Below are positions 1-53,951 of a stretch of 53,951 nt of DNA, piece after piece. Source of the DNA: a virus (lineage: Duplodnaviria; Caudoviricetes); IMG/VR virus record IMGVR_UViG_3300021339_000008, positions 1 to 53,951 of that record. The stretch is one strand, 5' to 3'. The notes beneath the pieces were generated by a model that saw nothing but the letters and a program-made list of their open reading frames with translations, did no database searches and was not told the origin of the DNA. The first letter of the stretch is position 1, and each line of letters opens with the position of its first letter. The translations under genes and the position numbers were made by a program.

Positions 1-9
1 CCCGCACGC

Positions 10-135
10 CCTGCCGCTGACGCTGATGGGCCGTCCGATCGTGTTCACCGAGAAGGCGGACACGCTCGGCACCGGCGGCGACCTGAACTTCGTCGACCTC
101 GGCTACTACCTGATCGGCGACCGGCAGCAGATCGA
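10..135 (+). repeat. 126-bp terminal direct repeat, copy 1 (circular assembly overlap)
   Basis: 10..135 is identical to 53826..53951; bases 1-9 do not match. Confidence 0.95.
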
Positions 136-292
136 GATCGCCACCAGCGAGCACATCAAGTTCAACCACGACACCACGGCCTACCGGGCCATCGAGCGCA
201 TCGACGGCCGCCCCGGCATGAAGACCGCCATCACCCCGCACAAGGGCGCCGACGCGCTGTCCCCGTTCGTCAGCCTCGCGACGCGGGCCTGA
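26..292 (+). CDS. Major capsid protein, C-terminal part (continues from 52765..53951)
   Basis: LMGRPIVFTEK...GDLNFVDLGYYLIGDRQ...RAIERIDGRP is an HK97-fold capsid C-terminus, in frame with the window end. Confidence 0.9.
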   Translation: MGRPIVFTEKADTLGTGGDLNFVDLGYYLIGDRQQIEIATSEHIKFNHDTTAYRAIERIDGRPGMKTAITPHKGADALSPFVSLATRA

Positions 293-1287: not shown

Positions 1288-1983
1288 GTGCTGTGGATCT
1301 GCAAGAGCGACGGGGTCGCCTACTCGGTCGGTGCGTCGCACTGCCCGCAGTGCGGCTGCACCGATTACGTCGAACAGGGATCGGAGGAACACGAAGCGAT
1401 GGCGAAGATCGCAAAGCAGGGTGGGCCGAGCGACGCGACCGCGTACCCGCCGGCCGACCTCGAAGAGGACACCAGCGGGGCGTACGAGGCGGCGCGTCAG
1501 CGGCACGCCGCCGGGCACGCGTCAGCTGCGGACCACGAGTTCCTGCTGACCCACAGGCCGCCGGTCGAGGACGACGCCGCCGGCCGCCGGGCGGCGTACG
1601 AGGCGGCACAGGAGCGGGACGCGCGCGGTGAGGCGACGCCCGCCGATGGCGAGCTGCTTCGCTCGTACGGCGCCGACGACGTGCCGTTCGGCGAGCGGGT
1701 CGACGAGGGCGACGGCGTCGAGAAGGTCGGCACCGAGCACGTGCTCGTCGGCGAGCACGGGCCGGAGCTCACCGACCTCGCTCCCGGCGCGATGGTCACG
1801 CCTAAGGCCGACGAGCCGGACTACGACAGCAAGGACGTGGACTGGCCGCGCGCGGAGTGCGCGGCCCGCGACCTGGCGACCGGCGGCACCCCGAAGCAGC
1901 TCGCCGCTCGGCTGCGGAAGGACGACGAGAAGAACGCGCGCCCGGCCGACGCCGAGGGCGTGGACGGGACCGAGCGGTCGTGA
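1288..1983 (+). CDS. Mosaic protein: N-terminal Cys cluster, AYEAA repeats, GEHGPE motif, C-terminal SAP-like domain
   Basis: CKSD..HCPQCGC; two xAYEAAxxRxAxGxAxxADxExL repeats; YDSKDVDWPRAECAARDLATGGTPKQLAARL resembles SAP. Confidence 0.6.
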   Translation: MLWICKSDGVAYSVGASHCPQCGCTDYVEQGSEEHEAMAKIAKQGGPSDATAYPPADLEEDTSGAYEAARQRHAAGHASAADHEFLLTHRPPVEDDAAGRRAAYEAAQERDARGEATPADGELLRSYGADDVPFGERVDEGDGVEKVGTEHVLVGEHGPELTDLAPGAMVTPKADEPDYDSKDVDWPRAECAARDLATGGTPKQLAARLRKDDEKNARPADAEGVDGTERS

Positions 1984-2463: not shown

Positions 2464-3501
2464 ATGGGCGTCAAATACACCTCGCGGGAGGCGGTGAAGG
2501 CCGCCACCGACCAGGCCGAGACCGCGCGTTCGAACGCGAGGGTCGACGCCGCCATCGAGTCCGCGTCACGGACGATCGAGCGCAAGATGCACCGCCGGTT
2601 CTATCCGTGGACCGGCACCCGCACCCTCGACTGGCCGCCGGACCAGCGGTCCCGGTCGCACGTGCTGTGGCTCGGCGAGGACGAACTGCTGTCCGTGAGC
2701 GCGCTGACCGCCGGTGGTGTCACGATCCCGCCCGGCGACTTCTTCCCGCGGCCGGACAACGCCACCCCGTACGACCGGCTGGAGATCAACCTCGCGGGCG
2801 GGTCCGCGTTCGGGGCGGGTGACACCTCGCAGCGGGCGGTGTCCATCGCGGGCGTCTTCGGCTACTGCGACGACACTGTGGCCGCCGGCGCCCTGGCCGA
2901 GGGACTGGACGTGTCGGAGACCGCGGTCGACGTGACCGACAGCGCGGCCGTCGGCGTCGGTGACCTGCTGCTGGTGGGCACCGAGCGGATGATCGTCACC
3001 GGCAAGACCATGCTGTCGACCGGGCAGACGCTGCAGGCGCCGCTCACCGCCGACGTCCGCGCCCAGACGGTGGCCGTCACCACCGGCTCGGCCTACGCCG
3101 CCGGGGAGACGCTCCTCGTCGACGCCGAGCGGATGCTCGTGGTGGACATCGCGGGCAATAACCTGATCGTGCAGCGCGCGCACGACGGCAGCACGCTGGC
3201 CGTGCACACCGGGTCCACGATCTACGCCCCTCGCACCCTGACCGTCGAACGCCACGCCGTCGGCACCACCGCGGTCGAACACAACACCGCGGCCGCGGTG
3301 CGCCGGCACACCCCGCCGGGCCCGATCGCGACGCTCGCCCTGGCGATCGCCGTCAGCGACCTGCAGCAGCAGGCCGCCGGGTACGCCCGCACCAGCGGCT
3401 CCGGCGACAACCAGCGCGAGACCGCCGGCAAGGGCGTGGCCGACGCCTGGCGCAACGCTGACCCCTACCGCCGCAAGGCACGCGGGCCGTGGGCCGTATG
3501 A
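2464..3501 (+). CDS. Head-to-tail adaptor protein with inserted beta-rich repeats
   Basis: YTSREAVK...AIESASRTIERKMHRRFYP adaptor-like N-terminus; two xxGxxLLVxxERMxV repeats; position. Confidence 0.7.
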   Translation: MGVKYTSREAVKAATDQAETARSNARVDAAIESASRTIERKMHRRFYPWTGTRTLDWPPDQRSRSHVLWLGEDELLSVSALTAGGVTIPPGDFFPRPDNATPYDRLEINLAGGSAFGAGDTSQRAVSIAGVFGYCDDTVAAGALAEGLDVSETAVDVTDSAAVGVGDLLLVGTERMIVTGKTMLSTGQTLQAPLTADVRAQTVAVTTGSAYAAGETLLVDAERMLVVDIAGNNLIVQRAHDGSTLAVHTGSTIYAPRTLTVERHAVGTTAVEHNTAAAVRRHTPPGPIATLALAIAVSDLQQQAAGYARTSGSGDNQRETAGKGVADAWRNADPYRRKARGPWAV

Positions 3502-5116: not shown

Positions 5117-5430
5117 ACAGCACCAACGATGACGCCCCCGTGGTCACCGTGACGCCGACGATCTGCGACGGCACCGTGGTCCGCTGGCACCGCGACGTCA
5201 ACGCCGCAGCGAACCACCGCACGGTCGTGTCGGCCAGCCGCAACGGGGTGTCGATCCACACCGAGTACCTGCACGAGGTCCCGGCCGACTGGCTCACCGC
5301 AGCGAACGCGGCGTACGAGCAGCTGCGGCGGAACCGCAACGCCGACGTCGGGCACCTGGCGACGCACCGCAACAGCATCGTCCGCAACGGACCGCTGGTG
5401 CCCGTCGAGCGGGAGGCCGACCATGGCTAA
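5113..5430 (+). CDS. Hypothetical protein inserted in the tail operon
   Basis: ATGA coupling upstream and 8-nt overlap with the next gene; 105 aa. Confidence 0.6.
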   Translation: MNSTNDDAPVVTVTPTICDGTVVRWHRDVNAAANHRTVVSASRNGVSIHTEYLHEVPADWLTAANAAYEQLRRNRNADVGHLATHRNSIVRNGPLVPVEREADHG

Positions 5431-6181
5431 GCAGTCCGGCCTCGGTGACCGCCTTTTCTACGCCGGGTACGACGTGTCCGGCGACATCGGCTCGCTGTCG
5501 CGGATCGGCGGCGGCCCGGCCGCGATGGACGTCACCGACATCACCCAGTCCGGGTTCGGCCGCATCGGCGGCAAGTTCGACGCCGCGATCGAGTTCAGCG
5601 CCTACTTCAACCCGGACAACGACCGCGCGCACGACCGGTTCTCCCTACTCCCCACCGGGCACCAGGCCCTGACGTACTGCCGCGGCACCACGCTGGGCGG
5701 CTCCGGTGCTGGGCTGCGCGCCAAGCAACTCGGCTACGACCCCACCCGCGCGCAAGACGGCGGGTTCACCTTCAACGTCGCCGCCGCGGCATCCGACGGC
5801 ACCGGCCTGGAATGGGGCCGGCAGCTCACCGCCGGGACCCGCACCGACACCGGTGCCACCACGGGCAGCAGCGTCGACCTCGGGTCAGCCTCACCGGGCG
5901 CGTTCGGCCTGGTCGCCTACCTGCAGGTGTTCGCGTTCACCGGCACCGACGCCACCATCAAGATCCAGGCGTCGTCCGACAACGCGGTCGGCGACCCGTT
6001 CGCCGACGTGGTCGGCGGCGGCTTCACCCAGATCACGGCCGGCCGGACGGCGCAGCGGATCGCCACCGCGGCGATCGCCATCGAGCGCTACCTGCGGGTC
6101 ATCACCATCACCACCGGCGGGTTCTCGTCGCTGGCGTTCTCGGTGGTGGCCATCCGGTACGACACCGAGATGGAGTTCTGA
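5423..6181 (+). CDS. Tail tube-like protein 1 with C-terminal extra domain
   Basis: MAKQSGLG..DVTDITQS..TRAQDGGFTF; paralogous to 6644..7051. Confidence 0.65.
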   Translation: MAKQSGLGDRLFYAGYDVSGDIGSLSRIGGGPAAMDVTDITQSGFGRIGGKFDAAIEFSAYFNPDNDRAHDRFSLLPTGHQALTYCRGTTLGGSGAGLRAKQLGYDPTRAQDGGFTFNVAAAASDGTGLEWGRQLTAGTRTDTGATTGSSVDLGSASPGAFGLVAYLQVFAFTGTDATIKIQASSDNAVGDPFADVVGGGFTQITAGRTAQRIATAAIAIERYLRVITITTGGFSSLAFSVVAIRYDTEMEF

Positions 6182-6630
6182 TGCGGCCCCTGACGCGGGC
6201 CGACCGGCTGTTGCTGCCCGCGGCGGCGTACCGGACGTACGGCATCGCGGCGCCGGCCGACACCCACCACCGCCCGGCGACGTGCGCCGAGGTGGACTGC
6301 GCGGCGCACCTGCACGGGTGGGTGACGACGGTGGACGAGGCCACGGACCTGGGGCAGCGGCAGGCGCATCACATTCGGTCGGCCGCCGGGCGGGGCTACC
6401 GCGAGGAACGCACGGCGGCGGGTCTGACCGCGTTCACGTTCCCGCCCGGTCAGCGGTGCTTCCGCCAGCACCGGACCCGGGTCGATCGGCCGGAGCTGTT
6501 CTACGTCCGCGGCGGCGACTGGCGCGGCAACCCGACCGGCGAGACGTACCAGCACACCCGACCGGCTGACTGGGTCGACGACTTCGCCACTCATCAGGAC
6601 CGGCTCGCGACACAGCAGCAACGCGGATAG
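6181..6630 (+). CDS. Conserved tail-region hypothetical protein (Cys/His motifs)
   Basis: TGATG coupling; ATCAEVDC..GW.T..GQRCF..H..GGDWRGNP. Confidence 0.7.
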   Translation: MRPLTRADRLLLPAAAYRTYGIAAPADTHHRPATCAEVDCAAHLHGWVTTVDEATDLGQRQAHHIRSAAGRGYREERTAAGLTAFTFPPGQRCFRQHRTRVDRPELFYVRGGDWRGNPTGETYQHTRPADWVDDFATHQDRLATQQQRG

Positions 6631-6643
6631 GAGAGGCAACGCA

Positions 6644-7051
6644 ATGGCCAAGGAGAACGGACTGGGCTGGACCACATTCTCGGTGGACACCAGCGCCGGT
6701 GCAGCGAAGGCAATCAAGAACGACATCACGAACTTCCAGTTCGCCACCCCACGGGCGGTACAGGACGTCACCGGCGTGGACAAGTCGGCAATGGAGCGAC
6801 TGCTCCTGCTGGCCGACTTCTCCGTCACCCCGAACGGGGTGTTCAACGACGAGACCGACTTCTCCCACGACGTGTTCAAGACCGTCCCGTCGACCTCGGT
6901 GGCGCGGACCGTGACCCTCACCGTGTCCGGGCAGACCCTCGCGAACGAGTGCCTGTTCACGGACTACGCGCTCACCCGAGCCCAGGACGGCTCCTTCACC
7001 TGGACAGCACCGGGTGTGCTGGCCAACGGCACGGTGCCCACGTGGGCGTGA
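6644..7051 (+). CDS. Major tail (tube) protein 2
   Basis: Strong RBS; MAKENGLG..DVTGVDKS..TRAQDGSFTW; precedes the chaperone and tape measure. Confidence 0.7.
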   Translation: MAKENGLGWTTFSVDTSAGAAKAIKNDITNFQFATPRAVQDVTGVDKSAMERLLLLADFSVTPNGVFNDETDFSHDVFKTVPSTSVARTVTLTVSGQTLANECLFTDYALTRAQDGSFTWTAPGVLANGTVPTWA

Positions 7052-7491: not shown

Positions 7492-9432
7492 ATGGCCAAT
7501 GTCGTCGAGATCGTCGTCAAGTCCAAGGACCAGTCCGGTCCTGGGCTGGCTTCTGGCGAACGGAATCTCGACGCATTCGCGAAGACCGGGGTCAAGGCCG
7601 GTGACGCGGTCGCCGGGTCGATGGAGAAGATGGCCGACAAGGTCACCGTCGCGCAGAAGCGAGTGTCTGCGGCGCTCGACGCGGAGGCGGAGTCGCTGGC
7701 CGAGGTGATGCGCGCCTCGGACCAGGTCGACTTCGAGCGGATCAGCGGTGACACCGACAAGCTGACCGCCGCGCAGAAGCGCCTAGACGAGGCGTTGCGG
7801 AAGCAGGCCAAGGCCAGCAAGGACGCGGAGAGCGCCGCGGCGTCACTCGGCCAGGCGCAGGCTCAGGCCGCGAAGGCCGCCGACAAGGCGGCGGCCGACG
7901 CCGGCAAGAAGCCGTTCCTGGAACTCGGGGGGAAGAAGTTCTCCGAGTCGATGGTGGCTGGTATCGCGGCTGGCGGTCCGCTGGTCGCCGCGGTTGGGGC
8001 GGCGGTCGGCGCTGCGGGTGCGGGTGCGGTGGTCACCGGGTTCGGTGCGGGTATCGCCGGGCTCGGTCTGACGATCGCGGCGAACTCGGGCCCGGTCAAG
8101 GGTTCCATTGAGAAGTTCAAGGCCGAGATCGGCGCGGATATGTCGCGCATTTCGGCGCCGTTTCAGCAGACGTGGGCGGTCATTCTCGATCAGGGCGAGA
8201 AGACGTTCGACAAGTTCAGGCCCGCCCTGGAGAAGTCGATGGGTGATCTGGCGCCGGTGATGTCTCGGTTTGTGGCTCGGCTTGGTCAGGGGTTCGCGCA
8301 GTTGGTGCCGGCGATCGCGCCGATCACCCGGGCCTTTTCGAAGGTGCTGGACGATTTGGGTCCGCGGATGCCGCAGGTCATCGGCGGGATCGAGAAGTCC
8401 CTTACCCGGTTGGCGTCGTCGATCGAGCGGAACCCGCAGGCGTTCGGCGATTTCATCAGCATTGTCGGTAAGGCGATTGAGCTTGTGCTCAATTTCGGGA
8501 TGGCCGTCAATGAGGCAAACGCGATTGTTCACAAGGCGTGGGACTTCGTCACGCTGAAGCAATTCCGGGGTGAGGCAGAGGGCGCCACGGGTGCGGTCGA
8601 GGGGCTCGACGGGGCGCAGCTGAAGGCGAAGCAGTCCGCGGCCGACATGGCCGAGGCCGAGCGGGCCGCGAAGGACGCCGCCGCGGCGCTGGCTGACGCG
8701 ATCCGCGACCTGACCGACGCCACCTACGCCAACATCGGCGGCGAACTCGCACGCAAGGCCGCGGTCGACGCCAGCGACGAAGCCCTCAAGACCTACACCG
8801 AGGCGGTCCGCGACCACGGGGCGAAATCCGAGGAAGCGTCGGACGCGCTGCTCGGCGTGGAGCAGGCCGCGTTGGCGGTGGCCGAGGCGACGTACAACGC
8901 CGCGCTGGCGCAACAGACGGCATCCGGGCAGGCACAGAACTCCGTCGCCGCGCAGACCGCTGCTCGCGACGCCCTGATGAACATGGCCGCGCACGCCAAG
9001 GGGCCGGCGCGCGACGCGATCCTGGCGCAGGCCGACGCCGTGCAGCAGTTGATCAACAAGCTGAACGCCGTCAACCGCACCTTCAACGCCAAGGTGATGA
9101 TCAGCTATCAGGGCACCGTCCCACAGGGGTTCCAGGCGGCGTCCGGCCGGACCGGCCTCGCCCACGGCGGCATCACCGGCGCGGCGGGCGGTGGCCCCCG
9201 CTCCCGGCAGACCCTCGTCGGTGAGCACGGCCCCGAGATCGTCGACCTCGCACCCGGGTCCACCGTCCACACCGCGGGTGAGACGCAGCGGATGCTCAGC
9301 CAGGGCGGCACCGGCGGCTTCACCCTGACCGAGCTGGTGCTGCCGCGCGGCAGCATCGAGGCCCTGCTCGTCGAGATCCTGCAGAAGGCCATCCAGGACC
9401 GCGGCGGCATGGGGCGGGTGTTCGTCGCATGA
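7492..9432 (+). CDS. Tape measure protein
   Basis: Ala-rich helical sequence, hydrophobic Gly/Ala segment, C-terminal AHGG..VGEHGPE motif. Confidence 0.9.
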   Translation: MANVVEIVVKSKDQSGPGLASGERNLDAFAKTGVKAGDAVAGSMEKMADKVTVAQKRVSAALDAEAESLAEVMRASDQVDFERISGDTDKLTAAQKRLDEALRKQAKASKDAESAAASLGQAQAQAAKAADKAAADAGKKPFLELGGKKFSESMVAGIAAGGPLVAAVGAAVGAAGAGAVVTGFGAGIAGLGLTIAANSGPVKGSIEKFKAEIGADMSRISAPFQQTWAVILDQGEKTFDKFRPALEKSMGDLAPVMSRFVARLGQGFAQLVPAIAPITRAFSKVLDDLGPRMPQVIGGIEKSLTRLASSIERNPQAFGDFISIVGKAIELVLNFGMAVNEANAIVHKAWDFVTLKQFRGEAEGATGAVEGLDGAQLKAKQSAADMAEAERAAKDAAAALADAIRDLTDATYANIGGELARKAAVDASDEALKTYTEAVRDHGAKSEEASDALLGVEQAALAVAEATYNAALAQQTASGQAQNSVAAQTAARDALMNMAAHAKGPARDAILAQADAVQQLINKLNAVNRTFNAKVMISYQGTVPQGFQAASGRTGLAHGGITGAAGGGPRSRQTLVGEHGPEIVDLAPGSTVHTAGETQRMLSQGGTGGFTLTELVLPRGSIEALLVEILQKAIQDRGGMGRVFVA

Positions 9433-12400
9433 CCACCTTCCCTCAGTTCCCCCGCGACCTCGACGCGGAGCTGTTCGTCCCCGGCACCGGGTGGGTGCCG
9501 CTCGGTGCCTACCCGCTGCAACGGGGGTCGTTCCGGCTGGAACGCGGTCTCGGGTCCAACGCGACCGCCGTGGTGCGGGGCACGGTGTCCGGCGAGTTGA
9601 ACAACCGCGACGGCCGCTTCAGTCCACGGAACCCGCGTGGCCCGTACTACGGCAAGCTCGGCGTCTACACCCCGTTCTACCTGGGTACGCGAGTCATCGA
9701 GGACGCGTTCGCCCGCACCTCGGCGTCGTCCTGGGGCAGCACCCCAGCCGGGCTCGCGTACACCACCCTCAGCGCCGGCGGCACCATCGCCGCGGCGGAC
9801 TACAACGTCGCCGCCGGCGTGGGCACCCACTCGGTGCCGGCCGCGGTGGCGTCCCGCGCCACCTACCTCGCGGGCCACGTGTACCGCGACGTCGACGTGA
9901 CGGTCGACGTCAGCCTGCCGTTCACCAACGTCACCGGCGGGTCGATCACCCTCGGGGTGATGCTCCGCGGCAAGTCCACCTCCGAGTACTACCTCGCGAC
10001 CGCCACCATCACCACCGCCGAGGCCATCGAACTCGGCTGGGAACACTCCACCGAGGGCCCCATCAGCGGCGCCACGGCCGTCACCGGCCTCACCCATGCC
10101 ACCGCCCAGACGCTGCGCCTGCGGGTCCTGCTCGAGGGGCAGACCCTGCGGATGAAGGCGTGGCCGGCCAGCGGCGCCCAGCCGTACGCGTGGCCCCTGG
10201 TGTGGTCCAACGTGGTCGCCGGGGCCGACATCCAGGTGAGCGGGTTCGGCTGGGTCGGGCTGATGGCCCGCGTCGACGCCGGCAACTCCAACGCGAAGCC
10301 GGTCATCGCGTCGTGGGACAACCTGGTCGTCAGGGTGCCGGAGGGCGCCGGGGAGATCACCGAACTACCCGTCGAGTGGGACAAGTCCGGCACCGACGTG
10401 TGGACCCCGTTCGTCGCGTCGGGGGTGCTGCAGCGGCTGGCCGCCGGCACCGGGGTGCTGGAGTCGGCGCCGCGGCGGTTCATCCCCACCAATGGGGCCC
10501 CGGTCGGCTACTGGCCCCTCGAGGGCGCCGAGCTCGCCGACGCGCTGCGACCGGTCGTGGGTACGCCACCGGCGGTGCTCGCCAGCTCCCTCAACTCGTC
10601 GGCGCACTTCGGCAAGGGCCAGTTGGCTTCGTGGCTGTCGCCGGTGTGCGCCCTGTTCGGCAACGACAGCGTCACCGTCAAGGTCACCATGCCCACCGCG
10701 TGGGCGACGACCGACGGGTGGCGTGTCGAGTTCGCCCGCCGCGGCGGGCGCGGCTCCGACACCACCCTCGTCATCCGCGGTGTGGCGGACGTGTGGACGT
10801 GCACGTTCCGGCCCGCGGTCGGCGACGTCGTGGTGCAGCCCCCGACAGGCGGGTCCACGTCGATCGGTGTCGAGGCCCTCTACGACGACGCCGTCCACCA
10901 GATCATGTTCTCCGCGCACCAGGTCGGCGCCGACGTCGTGTGGACGATCGACCTCGACTACGACGCCGCGGGCAGCGGCGCCACCCTCGGCGCCCACACC
11001 CTGCAGGGCGTCACCTCGGTCACCCTCGGAGACCCGACCGTCCACTCCGAGCCGTACGCCGTCGGTCACCTCGCGATCGCACCGGAGGCGTTCGTCGCGT
11101 CGACGGACTCGTGGCACGCCCTCACCGGGTTCCGGGGTGAGAAGGCGGGGTGGCGGTTCGCCCGGCTGTGCGACGAGCTCGGTATCGGCCGCAACCTCCT
11201 CGGCCACCCCGAGGACACCCAGCCGATGGGGCCGCAACGCGCCGGGCAGAAGGGCATCGTGCTGCTCGAGGAATGCACGGTGTCGGGGTCGATGGGTGAG
11301 ACCCGCGGCCTGAGCGGACTGTGGTTCCGCACGCTGCGGGACCGGTACAACGACGACCCGACCCTGACCCTGGACTACGCGCAGGGCGAGTTCGACGAGT
11401 TCAAGCCGGTCGACGAGGCGAGCGTCCTGGCCAACAAGGTCACCGCCTCCCGGACCGACGGCGGCACCGCCACCTCCGAGCTCACCACCGGCCGCCTGTC
11501 GACGCTGGCACCGGAGGACGGCGGCGCCGGCGAGGTCGCCACCACGGTGCCCGCCCCGGTGGCCACCGACAAGCAGCTGCCGCATATCGCCGGGTGGGCC
11601 CGCCGCCTCAGCACCGTCGACGAGTCCCGGTACCGGATCGGCCTGCAGCTGGGCAACGACCGGTACCAGACCGCGTCGGGGGCGCAGGCCCGCGCCGCCG
11701 CGGCGCAGGCCCTGACCGTCGACGACGTGCTGGCCGTGCTCAACCCGAAGGACGTGCTGGCGCCGGACACGATCCGGCAGGTGCTGCGCGGGGTGACCGT
11801 CGACCTGTGCCGGTACCGGCACGAGCTCGCGATCAACACGGCACCGGCCAGCCCGTACGACGTGTTCACCGTGGAGGACCCGGTGCTCGGCCGCCTGCAC
11901 GCGAGCGGGTCGGTGCTGGCGGTGGCGATCGACGACAACGACACGGCGCTGTCGGTGGCGTCGCCGGCGCGGCGGCGGTGGGCGACCACCACGGAGCCGT
12001 ACGTGGCGCGGATCGGCGGCGAGGACATCACGGTCACGGCCTGCGCCGACGAGGTGATGTCAAGCATCGTCGCCGGGACGGTGGCGCACGGCAACAACGC
12101 GAGCGTCGCACCAGGCCTGCCGGCTGGCCACGTCAGCGGCAACACGCTGCTGTGTCTGGCGGCGATCCGCAACAGCGGCGCCGGGGTGCCGTCGGGCTGC
12201 TCGGCCAGCTCTGGTGCCTACACCCGGCTGCCCGTGTTCGAGGCGGCGAGCAACGTCCAGCTGTTCGCGAAGATCGACAACGGGGCGGAGACGACCCCGA
12301 CCGTCACGTTCACGGGCGGCGTGGCCAACGCCGACACGTCGGCCCAGATCATCAAGATCGCGGGCGCCGTCTACGACGTCGACGAACTGCTCGTCCGCTC

Positions 12401-12794
12401 GGCCAGCGCCCTCAACGCGGCCGCCCAGAACATCGCGTTCCCCGGGCTGACCGTGAAACTCCCCAACTGCCTGATCATCTACGTCGGCTGGAAAGCCGAC
12501 GACTGGACCAGCGTCGCCGCGCTGGCCGGCGCCACCGAGATCGGCGAACCCGACACCACCACCGGTGATGACCAGGGCATCGTCTGGGACTACGTCCCTC
12601 AGACCCTCGCCGCGCACATCCCCACCGGCGAATTCGTCGTCACCGGCGGCGCGAGCGCGATCTCCCGCGGGGCCGTGCTGGCGCTGCGCTGCGACCGGCA
12701 GGCCTGGACCGTCACCCGCGGCACCGCGTGGGCCGGCGCCCACTCCGTCGGCGACCCCGTCCGGCTCGCCTCAACCCATGCCCTCGGACAGTAG
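9429..12794 (+). CDS. Large minor tail / baseplate protein
   Basis: LNNRDGRFSPRNP.GPYYG motif; 1121 aa following the tape measure. Confidence 0.8.
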   Translation: MTTFPQFPRDLDAELFVPGTGWVPLGAYPLQRGSFRLERGLGSNATAVVRGTVSGELNNRDGRFSPRNPRGPYYGKLGVYTPFYLGTRVIEDAFARTSASSWGSTPAGLAYTTLSAGGTIAAADYNVAAGVGTHSVPAAVASRATYLAGHVYRDVDVTVDVSLPFTNVTGGSITLGVMLRGKSTSEYYLATATITTAEAIELGWEHSTEGPISGATAVTGLTHATAQTLRLRVLLEGQTLRMKAWPASGAQPYAWPLVWSNVVAGADIQVSGFGWVGLMARVDAGNSNAKPVIASWDNLVVRVPEGAGEITELPVEWDKSGTDVWTPFVASGVLQRLAAGTGVLESAPRRFIPTNGAPVGYWPLEGAELADALRPVVGTPPAVLASSLNSSAHFGKGQLASWLSPVCALFGNDSVTVKVTMPTAWATTDGWRVEFARRGGRGSDTTLVIRGVADVWTCTFRPAVGDVVVQPPTGGSTSIGVEALYDDAVHQIMFSAHQVGADVVWTIDLDYDAAGSGATLGAHTLQGVTSVTLGDPTVHSEPYAVGHLAIAPEAFVASTDSWHALTGFRGEKAGWRFARLCDELGIGRNLLGHPEDTQPMGPQRAGQKGIVLLEECTVSGSMGETRGLSGLWFRTLRDRYNDDPTLTLDYAQGEFDEFKPVDEASVLANKVTASRTDGGTATSELTTGRLSTLAPEDGGAGEVATTVPAPVATDKQLPHIAGWARRLSTVDESRYRIGLQLGNDRYQTASGAQARAAAAQALTVDDVLAVLNPKDVLAPDTIRQVLRGVTVDLCRYRHELAINTAPASPYDVFTVEDPVLGRLHASGSVLAVAIDDNDTALSVASPARRRWATTTEPYVARIGGEDITVTACADEVMSSIVAGTVAHGNNASVAPGLPAGHVSGNTLLCLAAIRNSGAGVPSGCSASSGAYTRLPVFEAASNVQLFAKIDNGAETTPTVTFTGGVANADTSAQIIKIAGAVYDVDELLVRSASALNAAAQNIAFPGLTVKLPNCLIIYVGWKADDWTSVAALAGATEIGEPDTTTGDDQGIVWDYVPQTLAAHIPTGEFVVTGGASAISRGAVLALRCDRQAWTVTRGTAWAGAHSVGDPVRLASTHALGQ

Positions 12795-47289: not shown

Positions 47290-48714
47290 ATGACCGCCAC
47301 CATCGTCGAGCACGTCTACCGGCCACGCGGCTCGGCCATCGAGCTGATGGAGTGCCGCGACGGACAGGTCCTCGTCCGCGGCCCAGCCGGCACCGGCAAG
47401 TCCCGCGCCTGCTTGGAGAAGATCCACCTGCTGTGCCTGCTCCACCCCGGCATGCGCGGACTCATGGTGCGCAAGACGAACGTGTCGCTGACGTCGACGG
47501 CGCTGGTCACCTACCGCGAGCACGTCGCCAAGGAGGCGCTCGACGCGGGCATCGTCTGGTTCTACGGCGGCAGCAAGAGCGAGGCCGCGCAGTACCGGTT
47601 CACCAACGGCTCGACCATCACCGTCGGCGGCCTCGACAACCCAGCCGCCTCCATGAAGATCATGTCCAGCGAGTACGACATCGTCTACGCGCAAGAGGCA
47701 ACCGAACTCACCGAGGACGACTGGGAGAAGATCACCACCAGGCTGCGGAACAACCGCATCCCCTTCCAGCAGGTCATCGCCGACTGCAACCCCGACATGC
47801 CCACCCACTGGTTGAACGTGCGCTGCGACCGCCGGCAGACCACCGGCCTGGAGTCCCGCCACTGGGAGAACCCACGCCTCTACGACGAACACATCAACCC
47901 CGACAGCGCCGCCAAGACGTACACCCTCACCGACGGTGGCAGGCAGTACATGGCCATCCTCGACGCCCTCACCGGCGTCCGCCGCGCCCGACTCCGCGAC
48001 GGCCTGTGGGTGGCCGCCGAAGGCATGATCTACGCCGGTGAGTGGGACCCCGCGATCCACCACATCCCGCGGTTCCCCATCCCCGACGACTGGCCCCGCT
48101 ACTGGGTGGTCGACTTCGGGTACAACCACCCGTTCGTCTGCCAACGCTGGGCCGAAGACCCCGACGGCCGGCTGTTCATGTACGGCGAGCGGTACCGCAC
48201 CGGGCAGACCGTCGACGTGCACGCGGTCGGGATCATGGCCGCCGTCTCGAAGGCCGACCCGGACTACGTGCATCCCGAGGGCGACGAGCGCTTCGCGCAC
48301 CACGGCCGGATCTGGACGGAGCCGCGGCCGCGGGCGTTGATCTGCGACCACGACGCCGAGAACCGCGCGCAGCTGTGCAGGCAGCTCGGCATGACCACCA
48401 AGGCGGCGCACAAGAAGGTGCTGGCCGGGATCCAGGCGGTGCAGCAGCGGCTGAAGCCGGCCGGCGACGGTCGGCCGCGGCTGGCGCTGCTGCGCGACTC
48501 GCTGGATCACGCGCCGGACGCGGCGCAGGCCGCGGCGAAGCTGCCGACGTCCACGGCCGAGGAGCTGCCGGGCTACGTGTGGGCGATCAAGCCGGGCGGC
48601 ACGCTCAAGGAAGAGCCGCACAAAGAGGGCGACGACGGCTGTGACGGCGCGCGCTACATGGTCGCGTACAAGGACCTGAAGGGCCGTCCGCGGGGCGACC
48701 GCTACCTGGGGTAG
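47290..48714 (+). CDS. terL: Terminase large subunit (PBSX-like)
   Basis: GPAGTGKS Walker A, YAQEATE, DCNP, VDFGYNHP, DDGCDGARY. Confidence 0.93.
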   Translation: MTATIVEHVYRPRGSAIELMECRDGQVLVRGPAGTGKSRACLEKIHLLCLLHPGMRGLMVRKTNVSLTSTALVTYREHVAKEALDAGIVWFYGGSKSEAAQYRFTNGSTITVGGLDNPAASMKIMSSEYDIVYAQEATELTEDDWEKITTRLRNNRIPFQQVIADCNPDMPTHWLNVRCDRRQTTGLESRHWENPRLYDEHINPDSAAKTYTLTDGGRQYMAILDALTGVRRARLRDGLWVAAEGMIYAGEWDPAIHHIPRFPIPDDWPRYWVVDFGYNHPFVCQRWAEDPDGRLFMYGERYRTGQTVDVHAVGIMAAVSKADPDYVHPEGDERFAHHGRIWTEPRPRALICDHDAENRAQLCRQLGMTTKAAHKKVLAGIQAVQQRLKPAGDGRPRLALLRDSLDHAPDAAQAAAKLPTSTAEELPGYVWAIKPGGTLKEEPHKEGDDGCDGARYMVAYKDLKGRPRGDRYLG

Positions 48715-48839: not shown

Positions 48840-49052
48840 GTGACGGGCCGCGGTGTCTCCCTGCTCGGCCTCCTCCTGGGCAAGATCGCCAACCTCCCGG
48901 CCGTCAGCCTGCTGCTGTGCATCGCCGGCCTCGTCTTCCTCAGCGTCGCCGCGTTCACCTGGAACCTCACCGCCGGCTTCGCCTCGATCGGCGGTGGGCT
49001 GCTGCTCCTTGAGGTGCGCGTCAGCGCCAGCACCACCGCGGCCGCGCCATGA
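48840..49052 (+). CDS. Small membrane protein preceding the portal
   Basis: Two hydrophobic segments; ATGA coupling to the portal. Confidence 0.6.
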   Translation: MTGRGVSLLGLLLGKIANLPAVSLLLCIAGLVFLSVAAFTWNLTAGFASIGGGLLLLEVRVSASTTAAAP

Positions 49053-51256
49053 CGTCGTTGCTCGGCGCCCTCGCCACCGCCGCCCGCCCAGCCACCACGC
49101 AGCCGCGCAACGCCTCCCCTGTGCCGCTCACGACCAGCTTCGCCGGCGGGTTCGGCCGCATGATGGGCAGCGCCGGCACCGAGTCCCAGCTCCGCGCCAT
49201 GGGCGGCGTCGGCACCCTCTACTCCGTCGTCAACAAGATCACCACCGCGACGGCCGCAGTGGACTGGCACCTCTACCGCGAGGCCAAGTCCGGCCTCGAG
49301 GAGGACCGCGAAGAGGTCACGTCGCACGCGTGCATCGACCTGGTCCAGCGGCCCAACCCACACCAGACCCGCAGCGAACTCATGGAGGCCAGCGGCCAGC
49401 ACTTCGAGCTGACCGGCGAGGCCCCGATCGTCATCAGCCGTCACGAACGGTTCCGGGCGCTGCCGCTGGAGCTGTGGTCGGTGCGGCCCGACCGGATCGA
49501 GCCGGTGCCCCACCCGTATGAGTTCATCTCCAAGTACCTGTACCGCACCCCGGACGGGCAGCAGCTGGAGCTGGAGCTCGACGAGGTGCTGCGGCTGATG
49601 ACGCCGTGCCCGTGGGACCCGTACCGGGGTCTCGGGGTGGTGCAGACCATCCTCGTCGAGCTCGACTCGGCGCGCGCGTCGGCCGAGTGGAACCGCAACT
49701 TCTTCATCAACTCGGCCGAGCCGGGCGGCGTCATCGAGTACAGCGAGGTCCTCGAGGACCCCGACTTCGAACGAGCCCGGAAGCACTGGGCCGACCAGCA
49801 CAAGGGCGTCCGCAACGCGCACCGTGTCGCCATCATCGAGGGCGGCAAGTGGGTCGACCGCAAGTACACGCGCCGCGACATGCAGTTCGTCGAACTCCGC
49901 GCGGCCAGCCGCGACACCATTCTCGAAGGCTGGGGCCTGCACAAGGCCAGCCTCGGCATCACCGACGACGTCAACCGGGCCGCGTCGCTGTCTGCGAAGG
50001 CACTGTTCGCCGAGGACATCCTGGTGCCGCGACTGAAGCGGTGGCGCGGCCTGTTCAACCGGTTGCTTGCCATGTACGGCGACACCGCCCGTGGCCTCAC
50101 CTGGGACTACGAGAACCCGATCCCGCCCGATGCCGAAGCGGTCGACCGGGAGCGGGATAGCAAGACCAAGGCGTGGGCCTCGCTGTGTGCCGCCGGCGCC
50201 GACCCGGACGAGGCCGCCGATGCCGTCGGGCTGCCCCGCGGCCTCGTGAAGATCACCGGCCCGGAGGCCACGCCGACCGAGGGCGATGGCCCGGCGGCCC
50301 GGCAGCTGAGCCTGGTCGAGCAGGTGCAGAAGGTGTACCTCGGCGTCGGCACCGTCCTCACGTGGCAGGAAGCCCGGCAGATCCTCAACGACGGCGGCGC
50401 CAACCTCGACCTCACCCTGCCCCCACCCGCCGCGGCTGCCCCGCCACTGGCAGCGCCGGCCGCGCGGATGCCCCGGGCATGGCCCCGCGCGGCGGCCGAC
50501 CCACCCGACGACCCGGACGCCGTCGACGAGATCGATCTGTCCCCGGTGCAGGCCGCGTGGGAAGCCGCTGTTGCCGCCCTGCTGGCGTCGTTCGTCGGTG
50601 GCGCGCTCGTGGACTGGATCGACGCCCTGGTCGACCAGGTGCGGGACTGGGTCCGCAGCGGCGGTCGACTGGCCGACCTCCAGGTCGATCCGGACGACGC
50701 GGTCGACCTCGTCACCGACGCCCTCGCCGACCTCGCGGACATCGCCGCCGGGCACGTGGTCGCCGAGGCCGCCGACCAGGACGTCGACCTCGACCCGGCC
50801 ACCCCGACCCGGGCCGTGCTGAAGGAGCAGGCGCTCACGACGGTCGAACTGCTCGGCCAGGTGTACGAGCTGTCCGCCGCCCGCGAGGCCCAGCGGGTGG
50901 CCGGCCCGGACCCGGACGCCGACGAGCTCGCGGACTTGGTGCGCACCCACCTCGAGGCGCTCACCACCGCCCAGCCCGAACAGCAGCTCGGTGCCGCCCT
51001 CACGTCGGCCCAGAACCAGGCGCGCGCGGCGACCCTCACCACCGGGCCGGTCGGTGCCATCTACGCCAGCGAGCAGATGGACCTTCGGACCTGCGGCCCG
51101 TGCCGGGAGATCCACGGCCGGTGGATCACCAACACCGACGACCTCGGGCCGCTGTGGCGGCTGTACCCCGGCGCCGGCTACGTCGACTGCAAAGGCCGCA
51201 GCTACTGCCGCGGCACGTTCGTCGGCGTGTGGCGCGAAGGAAAGGACGCCGCATGA
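49049..51256 (+). CDS. HK97-family portal fused to a MuF-like head morphogenesis domain
   Basis: RPNP, LTGEA, ELWSVRPDR, NFF.NSAEPGG, DMQF.E; C-terminal D.RTC.PC..G...C.G...CRG. Confidence 0.88.
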   Translation: MTSLLGALATAARPATTQPRNASPVPLTTSFAGGFGRMMGSAGTESQLRAMGGVGTLYSVVNKITTATAAVDWHLYREAKSGLEEDREEVTSHACIDLVQRPNPHQTRSELMEASGQHFELTGEAPIVISRHERFRALPLELWSVRPDRIEPVPHPYEFISKYLYRTPDGQQLELELDEVLRLMTPCPWDPYRGLGVVQTILVELDSARASAEWNRNFFINSAEPGGVIEYSEVLEDPDFERARKHWADQHKGVRNAHRVAIIEGGKWVDRKYTRRDMQFVELRAASRDTILEGWGLHKASLGITDDVNRAASLSAKALFAEDILVPRLKRWRGLFNRLLAMYGDTARGLTWDYENPIPPDAEAVDRERDSKTKAWASLCAAGADPDEAADAVGLPRGLVKITGPEATPTEGDGPAARQLSLVEQVQKVYLGVGTVLTWQEARQILNDGGANLDLTLPPPAAAAPPLAAPAARMPRAWPRAAADPPDDPDAVDEIDLSPVQAAWEAAVAALLASFVGGALVDWIDALVDQVRDWVRSGGRLADLQVDPDDAVDLVTDALADLADIAAGHVVAEAADQDVDLDPATPTRAVLKEQALTTVELLGQVYELSAAREAQRVAGPDPDADELADLVRTHLEALTTAQPEQQLGAALTSAQNQARAATLTTGPVGAIYASEQMDLRTCGPCREIHGRWITNTDDLGPLWRLYPGAGYVDCKGRSYCRGTFVGVWREGKDAA

Positions 51257-51552
51257 CCGACGAGCGGATTGCGCTGACCACCCTCACCGGGGTGGCGGCC
51301 CAGCCCGGCGACGTGCTGGTGATCACCACAGCCGACTACCTCGACCGACAGGACGCCGACCGACTTCGAGCCGAGCTGGAGGCGCGGTTGCCGGGCATCC
51401 GCGCGGTGTTCCTCGACGGCGTCACGTCGGTAACCGTGTGCCGGCCGAAGCGCGCCACCGGCGGTGTGCTCTCCCGTGACGACGTCGCCACGCGGGTCAA
51501 CGAGTACGCGCTGGTCGAGCCGCCCACCAATGGTGCTGGTGGTCAGCGATGA
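51253..51552 (+). CDS. Hypothetical protein
   Basis: ATGA coupling; QPGDVLV; RATGGV. Confidence 0.6.
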   Translation: MTDERIALTTLTGVAAQPGDVLVITTADYLDRQDADRLRAELEARLPGIRAVFLDGVTSVTVCRPKRATGGVLSRDDVATRVNEYALVEPPTNGAGGQR

Positions 51553-51797
51553 ACCGGCCCGTGACCCCGCCCGAGGACGGTGACGGCCCGCCCGCCTCGG
51601 GTTACGGCGGCGCCATCGTCCGCCGCCCCGGTCACCCCACCGTCCGGTCCAAGCCGGTCTGCCTGCCGGGCGCCACCGAGAGCGTCACCCCGTGCTGGCC
51701 CGGCGAGGCCGGACCCGAGCTGTTCACCACCTGCTCGGTCGACGACTGCGACCGCCCCGCCGTGCCGCCGGGCGACACGTGCGGAGGACACCCGTGA
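51549..51797 (+). CDS. Hypothetical protein (GEAGPELF motif, C-terminal Cys/His cluster)
   Basis: ATGA/GTGA coupling. Confidence 0.5.
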   Translation: MNRPVTPPEDGDGPPASGYGGAIVRRPGHPTVRSKPVCLPGATESVTPCWPGEAGPELFTTCSVDDCDRPAVPPGDTCGGHP

Positions 51798-52768
51798 ACC
51801 GGCCACCCGTACCCGCCATCGACCGCGCCCTCATGGCGTCGGTGTGGCAGCACCTGCGCAACCGCGACCAGCGACCCAAGGCCGACCTCCCCGAAGGCCG
51901 CGGGCAGCTCCGCGTCACCGACGAAGCCGGTGTCGTCGAGATCTACCTGTACGACGAGATCGGCTACTGGGGCGTCACCGCCACCGACTTCGTCCAGACC
52001 CTCCTCAGCATCCAGGCCGTCAAGATCGTCCTGCACATCAACTCGCCGGGTGGCGAGGTCTGGGACGGGCTCGCGATCTACAACGCCCTGTGCGACCACC
52101 CCGCAGCGATCGAGGTCAAGGTCGACGGCATCGCGGCCAGCGCCGCGTCGTTCATCGCCCAGTGCGGCGACACCGTCGCGATGAACCGCGGCGCCTCGAT
52201 GATGATCCACGATGCGTCCGGGTACTGCTTCGGCAACGCCGCCGCCATGGCTGAGATGCAGCAGTTGCTCGACCAGACCAGCGACACCATCGCCGGCATC
52301 TACGCCGCCCGCGCCGGCGGCACCGTCGAGGCCTGGCGTGAGGCCATGCGCATCGAGTCGTGGTACTCCGCCACCGAGGCCGTCGCGGCCGGGCTGGCCG
52401 ATACCGCGGTGCCGGAGAAGACCACCGCGCCGGCCGGTGCGCCGGCGGCCCGGTTCGACCTCGCCCTGACCAGCTTCCACTTCGCCGGCCGGGCCCAGGC
52501 GCCGCGGCCGCCGATGCCCGGCCGCGCACCGGCCAACCAGCTACCCGTTGCGCCCACCGAGGACGGCCCCGGGCCGGCGGCTGGCGCCGAGCCCATCGCC
52601 ATCCCAGACCCGACGCCGGTAGCACCGGCACCCGCAGACCCGACCCCGGAACCCACCCCGCCCGCCGCTGACGCAGGCGACAGCGACCACGAATTCCAGG
52701 TCGACGCGTTCCGCGCGGCCCTCAGCACCGCGTTCGCACTCACCACCCAGAAGGAGGCGGCACTGTGA
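51794..52768 (+). CDS. ClpP-like head maturation protease
   Basis: INSPGG, DGIAASAAS, MMIHD, ESWY.A.EAV.AGLAD; Pro-rich tail. Confidence 0.92.
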   Translation: MNRPPVPAIDRALMASVWQHLRNRDQRPKADLPEGRGQLRVTDEAGVVEIYLYDEIGYWGVTATDFVQTLLSIQAVKIVLHINSPGGEVWDGLAIYNALCDHPAAIEVKVDGIAASAASFIAQCGDTVAMNRGASMMIHDASGYCFGNAAAMAEMQQLLDQTSDTIAGIYAARAGGTVEAWREAMRIESWYSATEAVAAGLADTAVPEKTTAPAGAPAARFDLALTSFHFAGRAQAPRPPMPGRAPANQLPVAPTEDGPGPAAGAEPIAIPDPTPVAPAPADPTPEPTPPAADAGDSDHEFQVDAFRAALSTAFALTTQKEAAL

Positions 52769-53951
52769 CCGCAACCGATGTCATCCCGACCAGTGCCGCC
52801 GAGCTCGAGGAGATGCTCCTCGACAAGGACCGGATGAAGCCCATCGCCAAGGACCCGGCGCTCTACACCGAGTTCATCAAGGCGTACGCCAACGCGCAGC
52901 AGTCCCTGTCCGCGCTCGCGCAGGCGAAGGCCGACTTCCAGCGGTTCCAGGCCGAGTGGCTCCGTGAGCACGGCCAGACCGACGAGGTGAAGCGCCTCAA
53001 CCTGGCCGCCACCGTCGACCGTGCCGCCGGGCGGGGCAAGAGCTACGACCCCGACGCCCCGGGTGCCGCGATCGACGGCAAGTTCAAAAACCTCGGCGAT
53101 CTCGCCGCGTCGCTGTACCGGGAGCGCAACGGCGTCACCGAGGCGCAGCAGCGCCTCGGCCAGCTCCGCAACGACTTCTCCTCCGCCGTCCCGTCGGACG
53201 GCGGGTTCCTCGTGCCGGAAGAGTTCCGGGCCCAGCTCATGGAGATGGCGCTGGAGACGGCGCTCGTGCGGCCCCGCGCGCAGGTCATTCCGATGGCGGT
53301 GCCGCGGGTGAAGCTGCCGTTCGTCGACGCCACGAGCAACGCGTCGTCGGTGTTCGGCGGGTTCGTCGGTTACTGGACGGAGGAGGCGGCCGAGCTCGTC
53401 GCGTCGTCGATGAAGTTCGGGTCGATCACCCTCGACGCGAACAAGATCACCCTGTACACCGAGGTGCCGAACGAGCTGCTGCGCGACTCGCCGATCTCGG
53501 TCGACGCGATGCTGCGCAAGAACATGCCCGGTGCGTTGGCCTGGTTCGAGGACGTGGCGTTCACCCGCGGCACCGGCGTCGGTGAGCCCCTCGGGTTCCT
53601 CCACGCCGGCAACACCGCCCGGGTGACGGTGGCCAAGGAGACCGGGCAGGCGGCGAACACCATCGTGTTCGAGAACGTCGTGAAGATGTTCGCCCGGATG
53701 CTGCCGTCGTCGCTGTCCCGCGCGGTGTGGATCGCCAACATCAACACGATCCCGGAGCTGGCCACCATGGCTCTGTCCGTGGGCACCGGCGGCGGCCCGA
53801 TCTGGGTGCAGAACGGCGCCGACGGCCTGCCGCTGACGCTGATGGGCCGTCCGATCGTGTTCACCGAGAAGGCGGACACGCTCGGCACCGGCGGCGACCT
53901 GAACTTCGTCGACCTCGGCTACTACCTGATCGGCGACCGGCAGCAGATCGA
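52765..53951 (+). CDS. HK97-family major capsid protein (continues at 136..292; about 447 aa in total)
   Basis: AAGGAGG RBS, GTGA coupling; SDGGFLVPEE, YWTEE, PNELLRDS, GTGVGEPLG. Confidence 0.93.
   Translation, partial: MTATDVIPTSAAELEEMLLDKDRMKPIAKDPALYTEFIKAYANAQQSLSALAQAKADFQRFQAEWLREHGQTDEVKRLNLAATVDRAAGRGKSYDPDAPGAAIDGKFKNLGDLAASLYRERNGVTEAQQRLGQLRNDFSSAVPSDGGFLVPEEFRAQLMEMALETALVRPRAQVIPMAVPRVKLPFVDATSNASSVFGGFVGYWTEEAAELVASSMKFGSITLDANKITLYTEVPNELLRDSPISVDAMLRKNMPGALAWFEDVAFTRGTGVGEPLGFLHAGNTARVTVAKETGQAANTIVFENVVKMFARMLPSSLSRAVWIANINTIPELATMALSVGTGGGPIWVQNGADGLPLTLMGRPIVFTEKADTLGTGGDLNFVDLGYYLIGDRQQI
53826..53951 (+). repeat. 126-bp terminal direct repeat, copy 2
   Basis: Identical to 10..135. 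Confidence 0.95.

Follow-up and report, generated by a model that had tools for sequence, protein, structure and literature searches.

We analyzed a complete virus record of the Caudoviricetes (IMGVR_UViG_3300021339_000008; 53,951 bp, 71.5% G+C), the whole length of which is hereafter called the window. In this record, a short peptide near the C-terminus of the tape measure protein (TMP) recurs in a small, otherwise unrelated protein of the head module. The small protein (231 aa; P0001, hereafter the carrier) is encoded between the major capsid gene and a head-tail adaptor-like gene, and the features of both proteins and of their structural gene neighborhood are collected in Table 1. The record is circularly permuted: the capsid gene exits at the right end, and its C-terminal part resumes in frame at the left end. 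No phage record nearly identical to the window was found by megablast.

Table 1. Structural genes of the window and features of the carrier and the TMP (ORF, open reading frame; pLDDT, predicted local distance difference test; GC3, G+C content at third codon positions; SD, Shine-Dalgarno).
Feature	Position	Strand	Basis or remark
231-aa carrier gene (P0001)	1288-1983	+	ORF, gene call, GC3 0.90, 3 homologues
Zn-ribbon-like N-terminal domain	1288-1386	+	C5, D8, C19, C22; model blocks 1-40, mean pLDDT 71-80
SD-like GGAGGA and in-frame internal ATG	1383-1388 and 1399-1401	+	probable second start, shorter product
MAKIAKQGG	1399-1428	+	family motif x-K-I-T-x-H-G-G, opening the nested product
two helical AYEAA repeats	1474-1668	+	translation, alignment; helices 63-74, 80-88, 97-112
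TMP-type core VLVGEHGPELTDLAPGAMVTPKAD	1741-1812	+	TMP profile positions 31-54; shared stretch at 1744-1788
SAP-like helix-extension-helix DNA-binding domain	1834-1935	+	PF02037 in homologues; two model helices
C-terminal tail NARPADAEGVDGTERS	1933-1980	+	almost invariant among 4 close homologues (alignment)
head-tail adaptor-like gene	2464-3501		
major-tail-like gene	5423-6181		
TMP, 646 aa	7492-9432	+	PHROG tape-measure families; adjoins 1121-aa tail protein gene
TMP C-terminal module	9154-9318	+	AHGG half, 13-residue Gly-rich spacer, core LVGEHGPEIVDLAPGSTVHT, helix, second GG cluster
1121-aa tail protein	9429-12794		directly after TMP
large terminase	47290-48714		
portal	49049-51256		
99-aa ORF	51253-51552		
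RATGGV	51451-51468	+	in 99-aa ORF; weak resemblance to Gly-Gly half
82-aa ORF, Cys-rich	51549-51797		
GEAGPELF, possible third copy	51702-51725	+	in 82-aa ORF; frame plot
ClpP-type prohead protease	51794-52768	+	Pfam and PHROG; window copy without the core element
major capsid gene	52765-53949, continuing in frame at 2-292		Pfam Phage_capsid; major-head PHROG
two small genes	between capsid gene and 231-aa gene		

Homology of the shared stretch

The peptides LVGEHGPELTDLAPG (1744-1788, carrier) and LVGEHGPEIVDLAPG (9214-9258, TMP) are identical at 13 of 15 residues. As the first-pass annotation of this DNA had reported, 37 of the 45 underlying bases are identical and five of the eight differences are synonymous (codons 3, 6, 7, 13, and 15; the other three, in codons 9 and 10, are non-synonymous), and both counts were reproduced on recounting. 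Identity dropped when the comparison was extended beyond 45 nt (50/75, 62/105, and 103/225 bases), and both stretches lie within real coding frames, namely the 231-aa ORF (GC3 0.90) and the 646-aa TMP. The motif GE.GPE occurred three times in the six-frame translation of the window, each time on the + strand and within a called gene (positions 1750, 9220, and 51702). When residues were shuffled within each of the 83 called proteins, the mean number of occurrences per proteome was 0.0185, and none of 2,000 shuffles contained two or more; the probability of a chance GE.GPE anywhere in the proteome was about 0.02.

We considered whether the two peptides might share no function, either because the head gene had recently been patched by gene conversion from the phage's own TMP gene or because the motif had arisen by chance in a Gly/Glu/Pro-rich proteome. 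The 37/45 base identity would fit such an origin, as would the placement of the intact core in P0001, which is off the site that it occupies in homologues; at that site, P0001 has a degenerate core copy (RGEATPADGELL, 1624-1659) ending the second AYEAA repeat, where the homologue P0004 has an intact core. However, codon usage by itself predicts 35.1 ± 1.9 identical bases for these two peptides (P(≥37) = 0.23), and in four genomes the head copy was no closer to the TMP of its own genome than to the TMPs of other genomes. Because base identity matches the codon-bias expectation, the data show selection at the peptide level, not a recent DNA copy, and the wording of the first-pass annotation, in which the motif was "copied" into the head gene, is not supported. 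In addition, the core was kept in 3/3 close homologues and in 15/86 diverged representatives of the carrier family (see below), whereas GE.GPE is rarely expected by chance. This conservation largely refutes an origin without shared function, which we regard as extremely improbable.

A profile was built from TMPs only (70 distinct TMP segments; 69 from an IMG/VR sample and 8 from related loci, with duplicates removed and the window excluded) and was run on a set of 6,923 six-frame ORFs, each 40 aa or longer, contributed by the window, by 38 related loci, and by two database proteins. It retrieved 15 TMPs at E ≤ 1.3e-10, eight of which were training sequences, the window TMP not being among these. 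The next rank was held by the 231-aa ORF of the window (E 2.2e-7 for the whole ORF; the matching stretch gave 28.0 bits at profile positions 31-54), followed by its relatives P0006 (2.8e-7), a partner ORF at locus L026 (6.7e-6), and P0004 (3.4e-4). Near or below the threshold were a degenerate TMP (L013, 0.0023), an unrelated minus-strand ORF (L029, 0.011), and a prohead protease (L027, 0.012), and further down a small ORF (L028, 0.041), P0005 (0.099), a 53-aa ORF (L037, 0.11), and another prohead protease (L008, 0.13). When seven carrier-family segments were aligned with the TMP alignment by hhalign, a probability of 97% (E 7e-11) was obtained over 24 columns, and a family member from a Streptomyces prophage matched the TMP profile at E 1.4e-8.

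On the basis of the profile ranking and the hhalign result, homology between the core of the head-gene copy and the TMP core is well supported at the sequence level, whereas a two-part match extending over the Gly-Gly half of the TMP module is not. Conservation at the protein level, which had been suggested from the base differences, is upheld by profile homology and by the three homologues, and links the TMP with a head-module protein that is otherwise unrelated to it. The first-pass annotation had named loss of the motif in homologues as an observation that would count against it; all three homologues of the 231-aa protein that were inspected keep the motif. P0001 lacks TMP placement, being a 231-aa head-module protein that matches no TMP family, and so represents a copy of the element rather than a TMP. 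Its MAKIAKQGG looks like the Gly-Gly half, a resemblance without statistical support: K-Q-G-G of P0001 lies 108 residues upstream of the core, compared with 12-14 residues, as in TMPs, for the H/L-G-G of P0005, P0022, and P0036. Most profile alignments stopped short of the Gly-Gly half; P0022 was a partial exception, in which the alignment reached profile positions 20-49.

The TMP of a Lentzea cavernae prophage (L165, 16555-18723) reads SHGEAIRLPQGSTVIP at the expected place, a His-Gly/Glu variant without GE.GPE, and the Zn-ribbon/SAP protein of the same prophage (10001-10498) reads ILHEGDVVVP, also a His-Gly/Glu variant without GE.GPE. From these sequences, this prophage is a possible single case of co-variation between head and TMP cores.

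The C-terminal module of the TMP

The shared 15 residues are part of a core of ~24 residues (hydrophobic-hydrophobic-V-G-E-x-G-P-E-h-h-x-h-P-x-G-x-x-V), which in the window TMP begins 72 residues before the C-terminus; this TMP scored 58.5 bits against a TMP profile built without it. A tblastn search of 50,697 phage records with a 31-aa region matched 108 records. Among the 60 matches listed, 59 were annotated as tape measure, and the 60th was an unannotated 653-aa protein at the TMP position in Streptomyces phage Dagobah. We also drew two samples of 80 loci from IMG/VR with degenerate DNA patterns, and regarded a match as TMP-like when its ORF had at least 388 codons and ended 59-135 codons after the core. 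With the VGEHGPE pattern, 70 matches were in ORFs of at least 388 codons, and 69 of them satisfied this distance; the TMP-like contigs ranged from 30 to 71% G+C, with Gly-Gly or Gly-Thr usually 10-14 residues upstream of the core. The remaining 10 of the 80 loci had the pattern in short ORFs, mostly in the wrong frame. The VGEAGPE pattern gave 82 matches in its 80 loci, of which 58 were TMP-like and the rest were mostly in large or truncated tail ORFs. No Pfam, NCBIfam, or PHROG family matched the motif in the TMP C-terminus or in P0001, even at E ≤ 10.

In T5, the maturation cut of pb2 has been mapped to the position behind R1127 (Linares et al. 2023, PMC10038345). In the T5 record, AEGG stands right after R1127 and MGEHGTEVV 13 residues past the cut, and pb2 residues 1119-1171 matched the TMP profile at 21.9 bits. 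T5 pb2 and the window TMP are alike in having A-x-G-G, a spacer of ~10-13 residues, and h-G-E-H-G-x-E-h-V within the last ~100 TMP residues, with T in T5 and P in this phage as the turn residue. They differ in that the T5 element is in the TMP beside a mapped cut, whereas here it is also in a small head-module protein and is known from sequence alone. In the cryo-EM structure of T5, the last 35 residues of pb2C were the only ones modeled (PMC10038345). The cut of lambda gpH, the position of which is known approximately, falls in the glycine-rich C-terminal region, and residues 818-849 (32 residues) alone were resolved, as stated in the Ur-lambda paper (PMC12617516). Near the lambda cut, a short conserved core stands between two ATGG motifs spaced by about 45 residues, similar to the window TMP, which also has GG clusters on both sides; however, the lambda core (IVHRGEFVF) lacks GE.GPE and did not match the TMP profile. 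TIGR01541 (NCBIfam tape_meas_lam_C), which we take to represent the C-terminal region of lambda gpH, did not match the window TMP at E ≤ 10. The TMP of TP901-1 is also without the module when searched with the TMP profile. Because lambda gpH fails the profile and the TP901-1 TMP lacks the module, we describe the module as widespread but not universal. A published mutagenesis of the TP901-1 TMP (PMC5099701) had been considered as evidence on whether the module is essential, and was set aside as irrelevant since that TMP is without the module.

The window TMP C-terminus was modeled with AlphaFold2 from 80 aligned TMP C-termini (mean pLDDT 68). In the model, strands at residues 35-38 and 44-47 flank the GEHGP turn (block mean pLDDT 76-85 over residues 31-60) and are followed by helices at 57-67 and 84-98. 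By this prediction, the core is a beta-hairpin, the tip of which is the GE.GP turn. A fold search with this model gave no Foldseek match at E ≤ 0.001 and a best Z of 2.3 in the wide VIA search; a weak or missing fold match of this model proves nothing in either direction. Compared by sequence with solved structures, the module (100-aa query, 43-aa query, and 10-sequence profile) retrieved unrelated chains only, at E ≥ 0.24.

Such a hairpin might act on its own kind: hairpins from several chains could join in a small beta-barrel or annulus and thereby hold the TMP C-termini in a bundle, and in other proteins the same pairing could serve oligomerization, possibly mixed with the TMP. This possibility is consistent with the predicted hairpin, with the presence of the element in proteins that have no other domain in common, and with the trimeric TMP C-termini reported for T5, 80alpha, and lambda, compared with six copies of the rest of lambda gpH (PMC10038345, PMC12617516). 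However, the module is not ordered in the solved tail tips, and we consider self-association unlikely as the function of the core.

The core could also be envelope-active: as has been proposed for T5 pb2C, it would work at the cell wall after ejection, as a mini-domain that is muralytic or binds metal, and the head-module carriers would be extra helpers in wall penetration. The T5 pb2 record links to InterPro IPR000834, the zinc carboxypeptidase family with its H-x-x-E signature, and both window copies read H-G-P-E; moreover, E40, P43, and E44 were invariant across the 80 TMP C-termini. The His, however, is not conserved, with Q, A, S, N, E, F, or R at that position in TMPs and family members, and an M14-type H-x-x-E pair of zinc ligands was not maintained across homologues and related TMPs. 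A hairpin of ~24 residues, which in the carrier would sit in a disordered linker, is also too small for an enzyme, the fold searches above gave no structural match, and the other carrier domains appear from their sequences to bind DNA or zinc, not the cell wall. An envelope-active role is thus very unlikely.

As a separate observation on the TMP, its N-terminus (residues 26-135) showed a sub-threshold NCBIfam match to ZorA (E 5.5e-6; 25 bits, where the cut-off is 190), which probably reflects coiled-coil composition, not homology.

The carrier family and its probable nested start

The model of P0001 consists of a small N-terminal domain, helices within residues 63-112, a low-pLDDT segment that contains the core, and a confident SAP-like helix pair. 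Most relatives have four Cys (CxxC...CPxC) in the Zn-ribbon-like domain, whereas P0001, P0005, and P0006 have Asp at the second position; the domain gave no Pfam match. The core is inside a segment with pLDDT below 50 (residues 115-173) and is predicted to lie in a disordered linker. The SAP-like end that the first-pass annotation had pointed out appears to be real: PF02037 was present in the three homologues P0004-P0006, and the model has two confident helices (185-193 and 202-216), with 10-residue block mean pLDDT of 90-93 (181-210) and 78 (211-220). PF02037 was also found in the partner ORF at L026 (E 3e-6), and P0001 itself remained below the threshold (E 0.12; 12.5 bits against a cut-off of 23.9).

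Close relatives of P0001 were rare: 5.8 billion clustered proteins included three only, each of which has retained the core and contains PF02037. A search of the ESM Atlas with P0001 gave no usable match. The wider Zn-ribbon family comprised 38 IMG/VR loci and 10 genome loci, the latter from Streptomyces (six records), Amycolatopsis, Lentzea, Pseudonocardiaceae, and Frankiales. A profile from the A1 alignment matched 1,261 proteins at E ≤ 0.001 among 1.84 billion representatives, in which the family was mixed with SAP-domain proteins. We examined 152 of the 1,261 matched proteins and found 86 with a Zn-ribbon-like start; among these 86 representatives, x-K-I-T-x-H-G-G was present in 60, a SAP pattern in 31, and the TMP core, as detected by the TMP-only profile, in 15. 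Outside the 86, P0036 (108 aa) is a core carrier that starts at the internal Met. In P0144, the core is at 126, downstream of the SAP domain at 92-114, so that in this family the core can stand before or after SAP, and its distance to the GG motif extends up to the 108 residues of P0001. This varying placement relative to other domains, together with weaker and individually non-significant matches in other structural-module proteins, bears out the idea of a portable element that the first-pass annotation had put forward.

It is well supported that the carrier belongs to an uncatalogued family in actinomycete phages and prophages. The family layout is equally well supported: a Zn-ribbon, an internal start, an acidic linker that contains the core in about one-sixth of the representatives, and a SAP domain or a basic Ser/Thr-rich tail. 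Two members, P0034 and P0122, have two Zn-ribbon-like units ahead of the K-I-T-x-H-G-G motif.

A probable second start is nested in the carrier gene (Table 1). At 33 of the 38 loci, as well as in the window, ATG or GTG stands right before [A/P]-K-I-T, and of the 29 non-duplicate loci, 27 had an SD-like core upstream of the internal start. Just upstream, GAA, which is a rare Glu codon, occurred at a frequency of 23/68, compared with 15% elsewhere (binomial P 8e-5, although the loci are related and not independent). At L026, the two parts of the gene are separate ORFs in different frames, and the N-terminus of P0036 coincides with the internal Met of the family. The conserved start, the SD-like sequence, and the split ORFs of L026 make it likely, as far as sequences can tell, that one gene gives two products, full-length and shorter. 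In-frame nested genes of the head module are known from lambda, namely C and Nu3. The carrier gene appears similar in having an internal ribosome-binding site and start within a head-module gene, which would give two products sharing a C-terminus, but it is no protease/scaffold pair.

TP901-1 has a protein in a comparable position: ORF37 (NP_112700; L171, 250-447) is a 65-aa HeH/LEM protein encoded directly after the major capsid gene and annotated "head to tail joining, putative". It resembles the carrier in standing after the capsid gene and before the adaptor and in having a helix-extension-helix DNA-binding domain, whereas it has neither a Zn-ribbon nor a TMP-type core; the likeness noted here is one of position and domain type.

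Further copies and possible roles of the core

Copies outside TMPs were looked for on ~50 related loci and in the two samples of 80 loci. The third GEAGPELF of the window stands where the first-pass annotation had placed it, but its 82-aa ORF scored E 1.2 against the TMP-only profile, which is non-significant by itself. This ORF has a single homologue, which keeps the GEAGPELF stretch but is 72% identical overall. Both the ORF and its homologue (L003, ~6450-6698) have the arrangement C-x22-C-x5-C-x10-C-G-G-H around GEAGPELF, with four Cys and the C-terminal His kept, and the 82-aa ORF may, judging from these residues, encode a small metal-binding protein between portal and protease. RATGGV is likewise present at the position given by the first-pass annotation, and its proposed link to the Gly-Gly half comes down to a BLASTP alignment of 16 residues (E 0.019), in which the counterpart is PATGGVL from the C-terminal tail of the prohead protease at L008. 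We had considered that the 99-aa and 82-aa ORFs together might be a relocated protease tail; this idea was dropped, as the match covers 16 residues only and the 82-aa ORF gave none. The portal ORF preceding them (735 aa) has its Pfam portal domain at residues 56-347 and PHROG 2662 at residues 55-690, and a weak match to a head-maturation-protease PHROG at residues 665-730 (E 1.6e-4) suggests an unusual C-terminal extension. On the tail side, the 1121-aa protein matched PHROG 5313 over residues 2-888, with a phosphodiesterase-like stretch (PHROG 24476) at residues 642-819, and is probably a fused distal-tail or tip protein and enzyme domain.

GEHGPE was also found in C-terminal extensions of the ClpP-type prohead proteases of L008, L027, and L169 (E 0.0045 for L169); the window protease is 50% identical to that of L008 up to where the extensions diverge. 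Core-like matches were present in a 71-aa Zn-ribbon ORF directly before the major-tail-like gene of L028 and in a 53-aa ORF among the connector genes of L037, upstream of the major tail gene. In L046, a contig from the unbiased IMG/VR sample that is unrelated to the window, a 93-aa ORF (1301-1579, minus strand, GC3 0.90) between connector and major tail genes, directly before the latter, ends in the core-like KPGGGAKPAPAAVGEHGPEIVTLPAGAVIIP; from its sequence, it reads as a second kind of small carrier. At L110, a 118-aa ORF in the replication region holds the heptapeptide without further features of the module. All carriers with known context were in the structural module, among the proteins of which the core has been mobile. 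A region-limited word search for short motif proteins returned the query alone as a candidate and was uninformative, and no copy outside the TMP was found in TP901-1.

The protease tails raise the question of whether the module marks proteins for assembly-linked proteolysis, as in the conversion of pb2 to pb2* and pb2C and of gpH to gpH* and gpHC. Carriers and protease tails would then be cut at or near the module, and the nested start would yield an "already cut" form directly. The T5 cut right before AEGG, 13 residues before MGEHGTEVV, and the lambda cut in the glycine-rich region both agree with such a maturation determinant, as do the weak matches in the protease extensions. ClpP-type prohead proteases usually process themselves. 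Moreover, the nested product begins a few residues before H-G-G, comparable to pb2C, which begins at A-E-G-G. However, the Gly-Gly half, where the mapped cut is located, shows no significant conservation in the head proteins, and 108 residues separate the GG motif of P0001 from its core. A cut signal would also make little sense in ORFs of 53-93 aa or past the last domain, as in P0144, and the lambda core differs from the module and fails the TMP profile. According to the Ur-lambda paper, cleavage is known for the T5 and lambda TMPs only (PMC12617516). We regard a role as maturation determinant as doubtful.

The interpretation that we favor, tentatively and from sequence comparisons, is that the core is a docking or virion-incorporation peptide, which would take the carrier to the site where the C-terminal TMP fragment is assembled, or to its partner. 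Such a peptide would be disordered until bound, and its target could be the lumen of the tail tip or tube, or that of structurally related connector rings. The carrier might then be incorporated into the DNA conduit of the virion, its SAP domain or basic tail possibly gripping the end of the DNA, and would exit with the TMP and the DNA at infection. The signal for processing, packaging, or ejection that the first-pass annotation had envisaged is an inference as well. The placement of the core in a low-pLDDT linker, its variable position, and its occurrence in ORFs of 53, 71, and 93 aa fit docking better than a cut site, and docking is also consistent with the structural-module location of the carriers and with the TMP hairpin predicted at block pLDDT 76-85.

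Several results weigh against docking. The copies in protease tails and mini-ORFs are individually weak (E 0.0045 to 0.15). Support for homology spans ~24 residues, as neither hmmsearch nor hhalign aligned the Gly-Gly half in the head proteins, and no co-variation of head and TMP cores within the same genome was seen in four genomes. Among cultured phages with the TMP module, no copy outside the TMP was found in the 46-kb late region of T5, in Dagobah, or in Franklin22, which indicates that the element is not generally needed outside the TMP. A tblastn search of the 50,697 cultured phage records with the carrier and a prophage family member gave no match. In the T5 and lambda structures, the part of the TMP fragment that would hold the module is unresolved, and no docking site is visible.

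Portable loading signals have precedents that resemble a docking peptide in how they work. The capsid targeting sequence of T4 internal proteins is a portable virion-loading signal. Payloads of PVC likewise carry N-terminal signal peptides for loading (PMC11495950). In each case, a short transferable peptide selects accessory proteins for packing into an injection machine. Conversely, those signals stand at the N-terminus, bear no sequence relation to the core, and have been demonstrated by experiment, whereas the element described here is internal, shared with the TMP, and read from sequence. In a more general form of the docking interpretation, which we think rather unlikely, a transferable address peptide derived from the TMP C-terminal module would load proteins with the GE.GPE hairpin into the tail or connector lumen, to be injected ahead of or together with the DNA. 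In this phage, the tag would load small DNA-binding proteins that escort the genome end into the cell, and a general address peptide would explain why T5 and lambda retain the cleaved C-terminal TMP fragment in the particle.

The TMP module was already known implicitly, as the "metallopeptidase motif" of T5 and the glycine-rich region of lambda. What is new is that, in a siphophage lineage, the element occurs in a small Zn-ribbon/SAP family encoded in the head module; the nested start of this family and the family as such are also new. In the literature on conserved TMP motifs and glycine-rich cleavage, we found no account of the element outside TMPs, and a literature search for the motif as a letter string found no phage match. 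The finding bears on TMP maturation, on the role of the cleaved C-terminal TMP fragment, and on the injection of non-TMP proteins by siphophages. The Ur-lambda paper states that it is not known what catalyzes the cleavage of gpH or what role this cleavage has (PMC12617516). The presence of the core that adjoins the T5 cut on small, simple proteins that look non-essential provides a tractable handle that leaves the essential TMP untouched, and with which it can be asked whether a 24-residue peptide is sufficient to load a reporter into particles or to have it cut. Should the core turn out to be a loading tag, it would offer a means of packing cargo into phage tails; otherwise, what has been defined here is still an element and a protein family, both of them uncatalogued.

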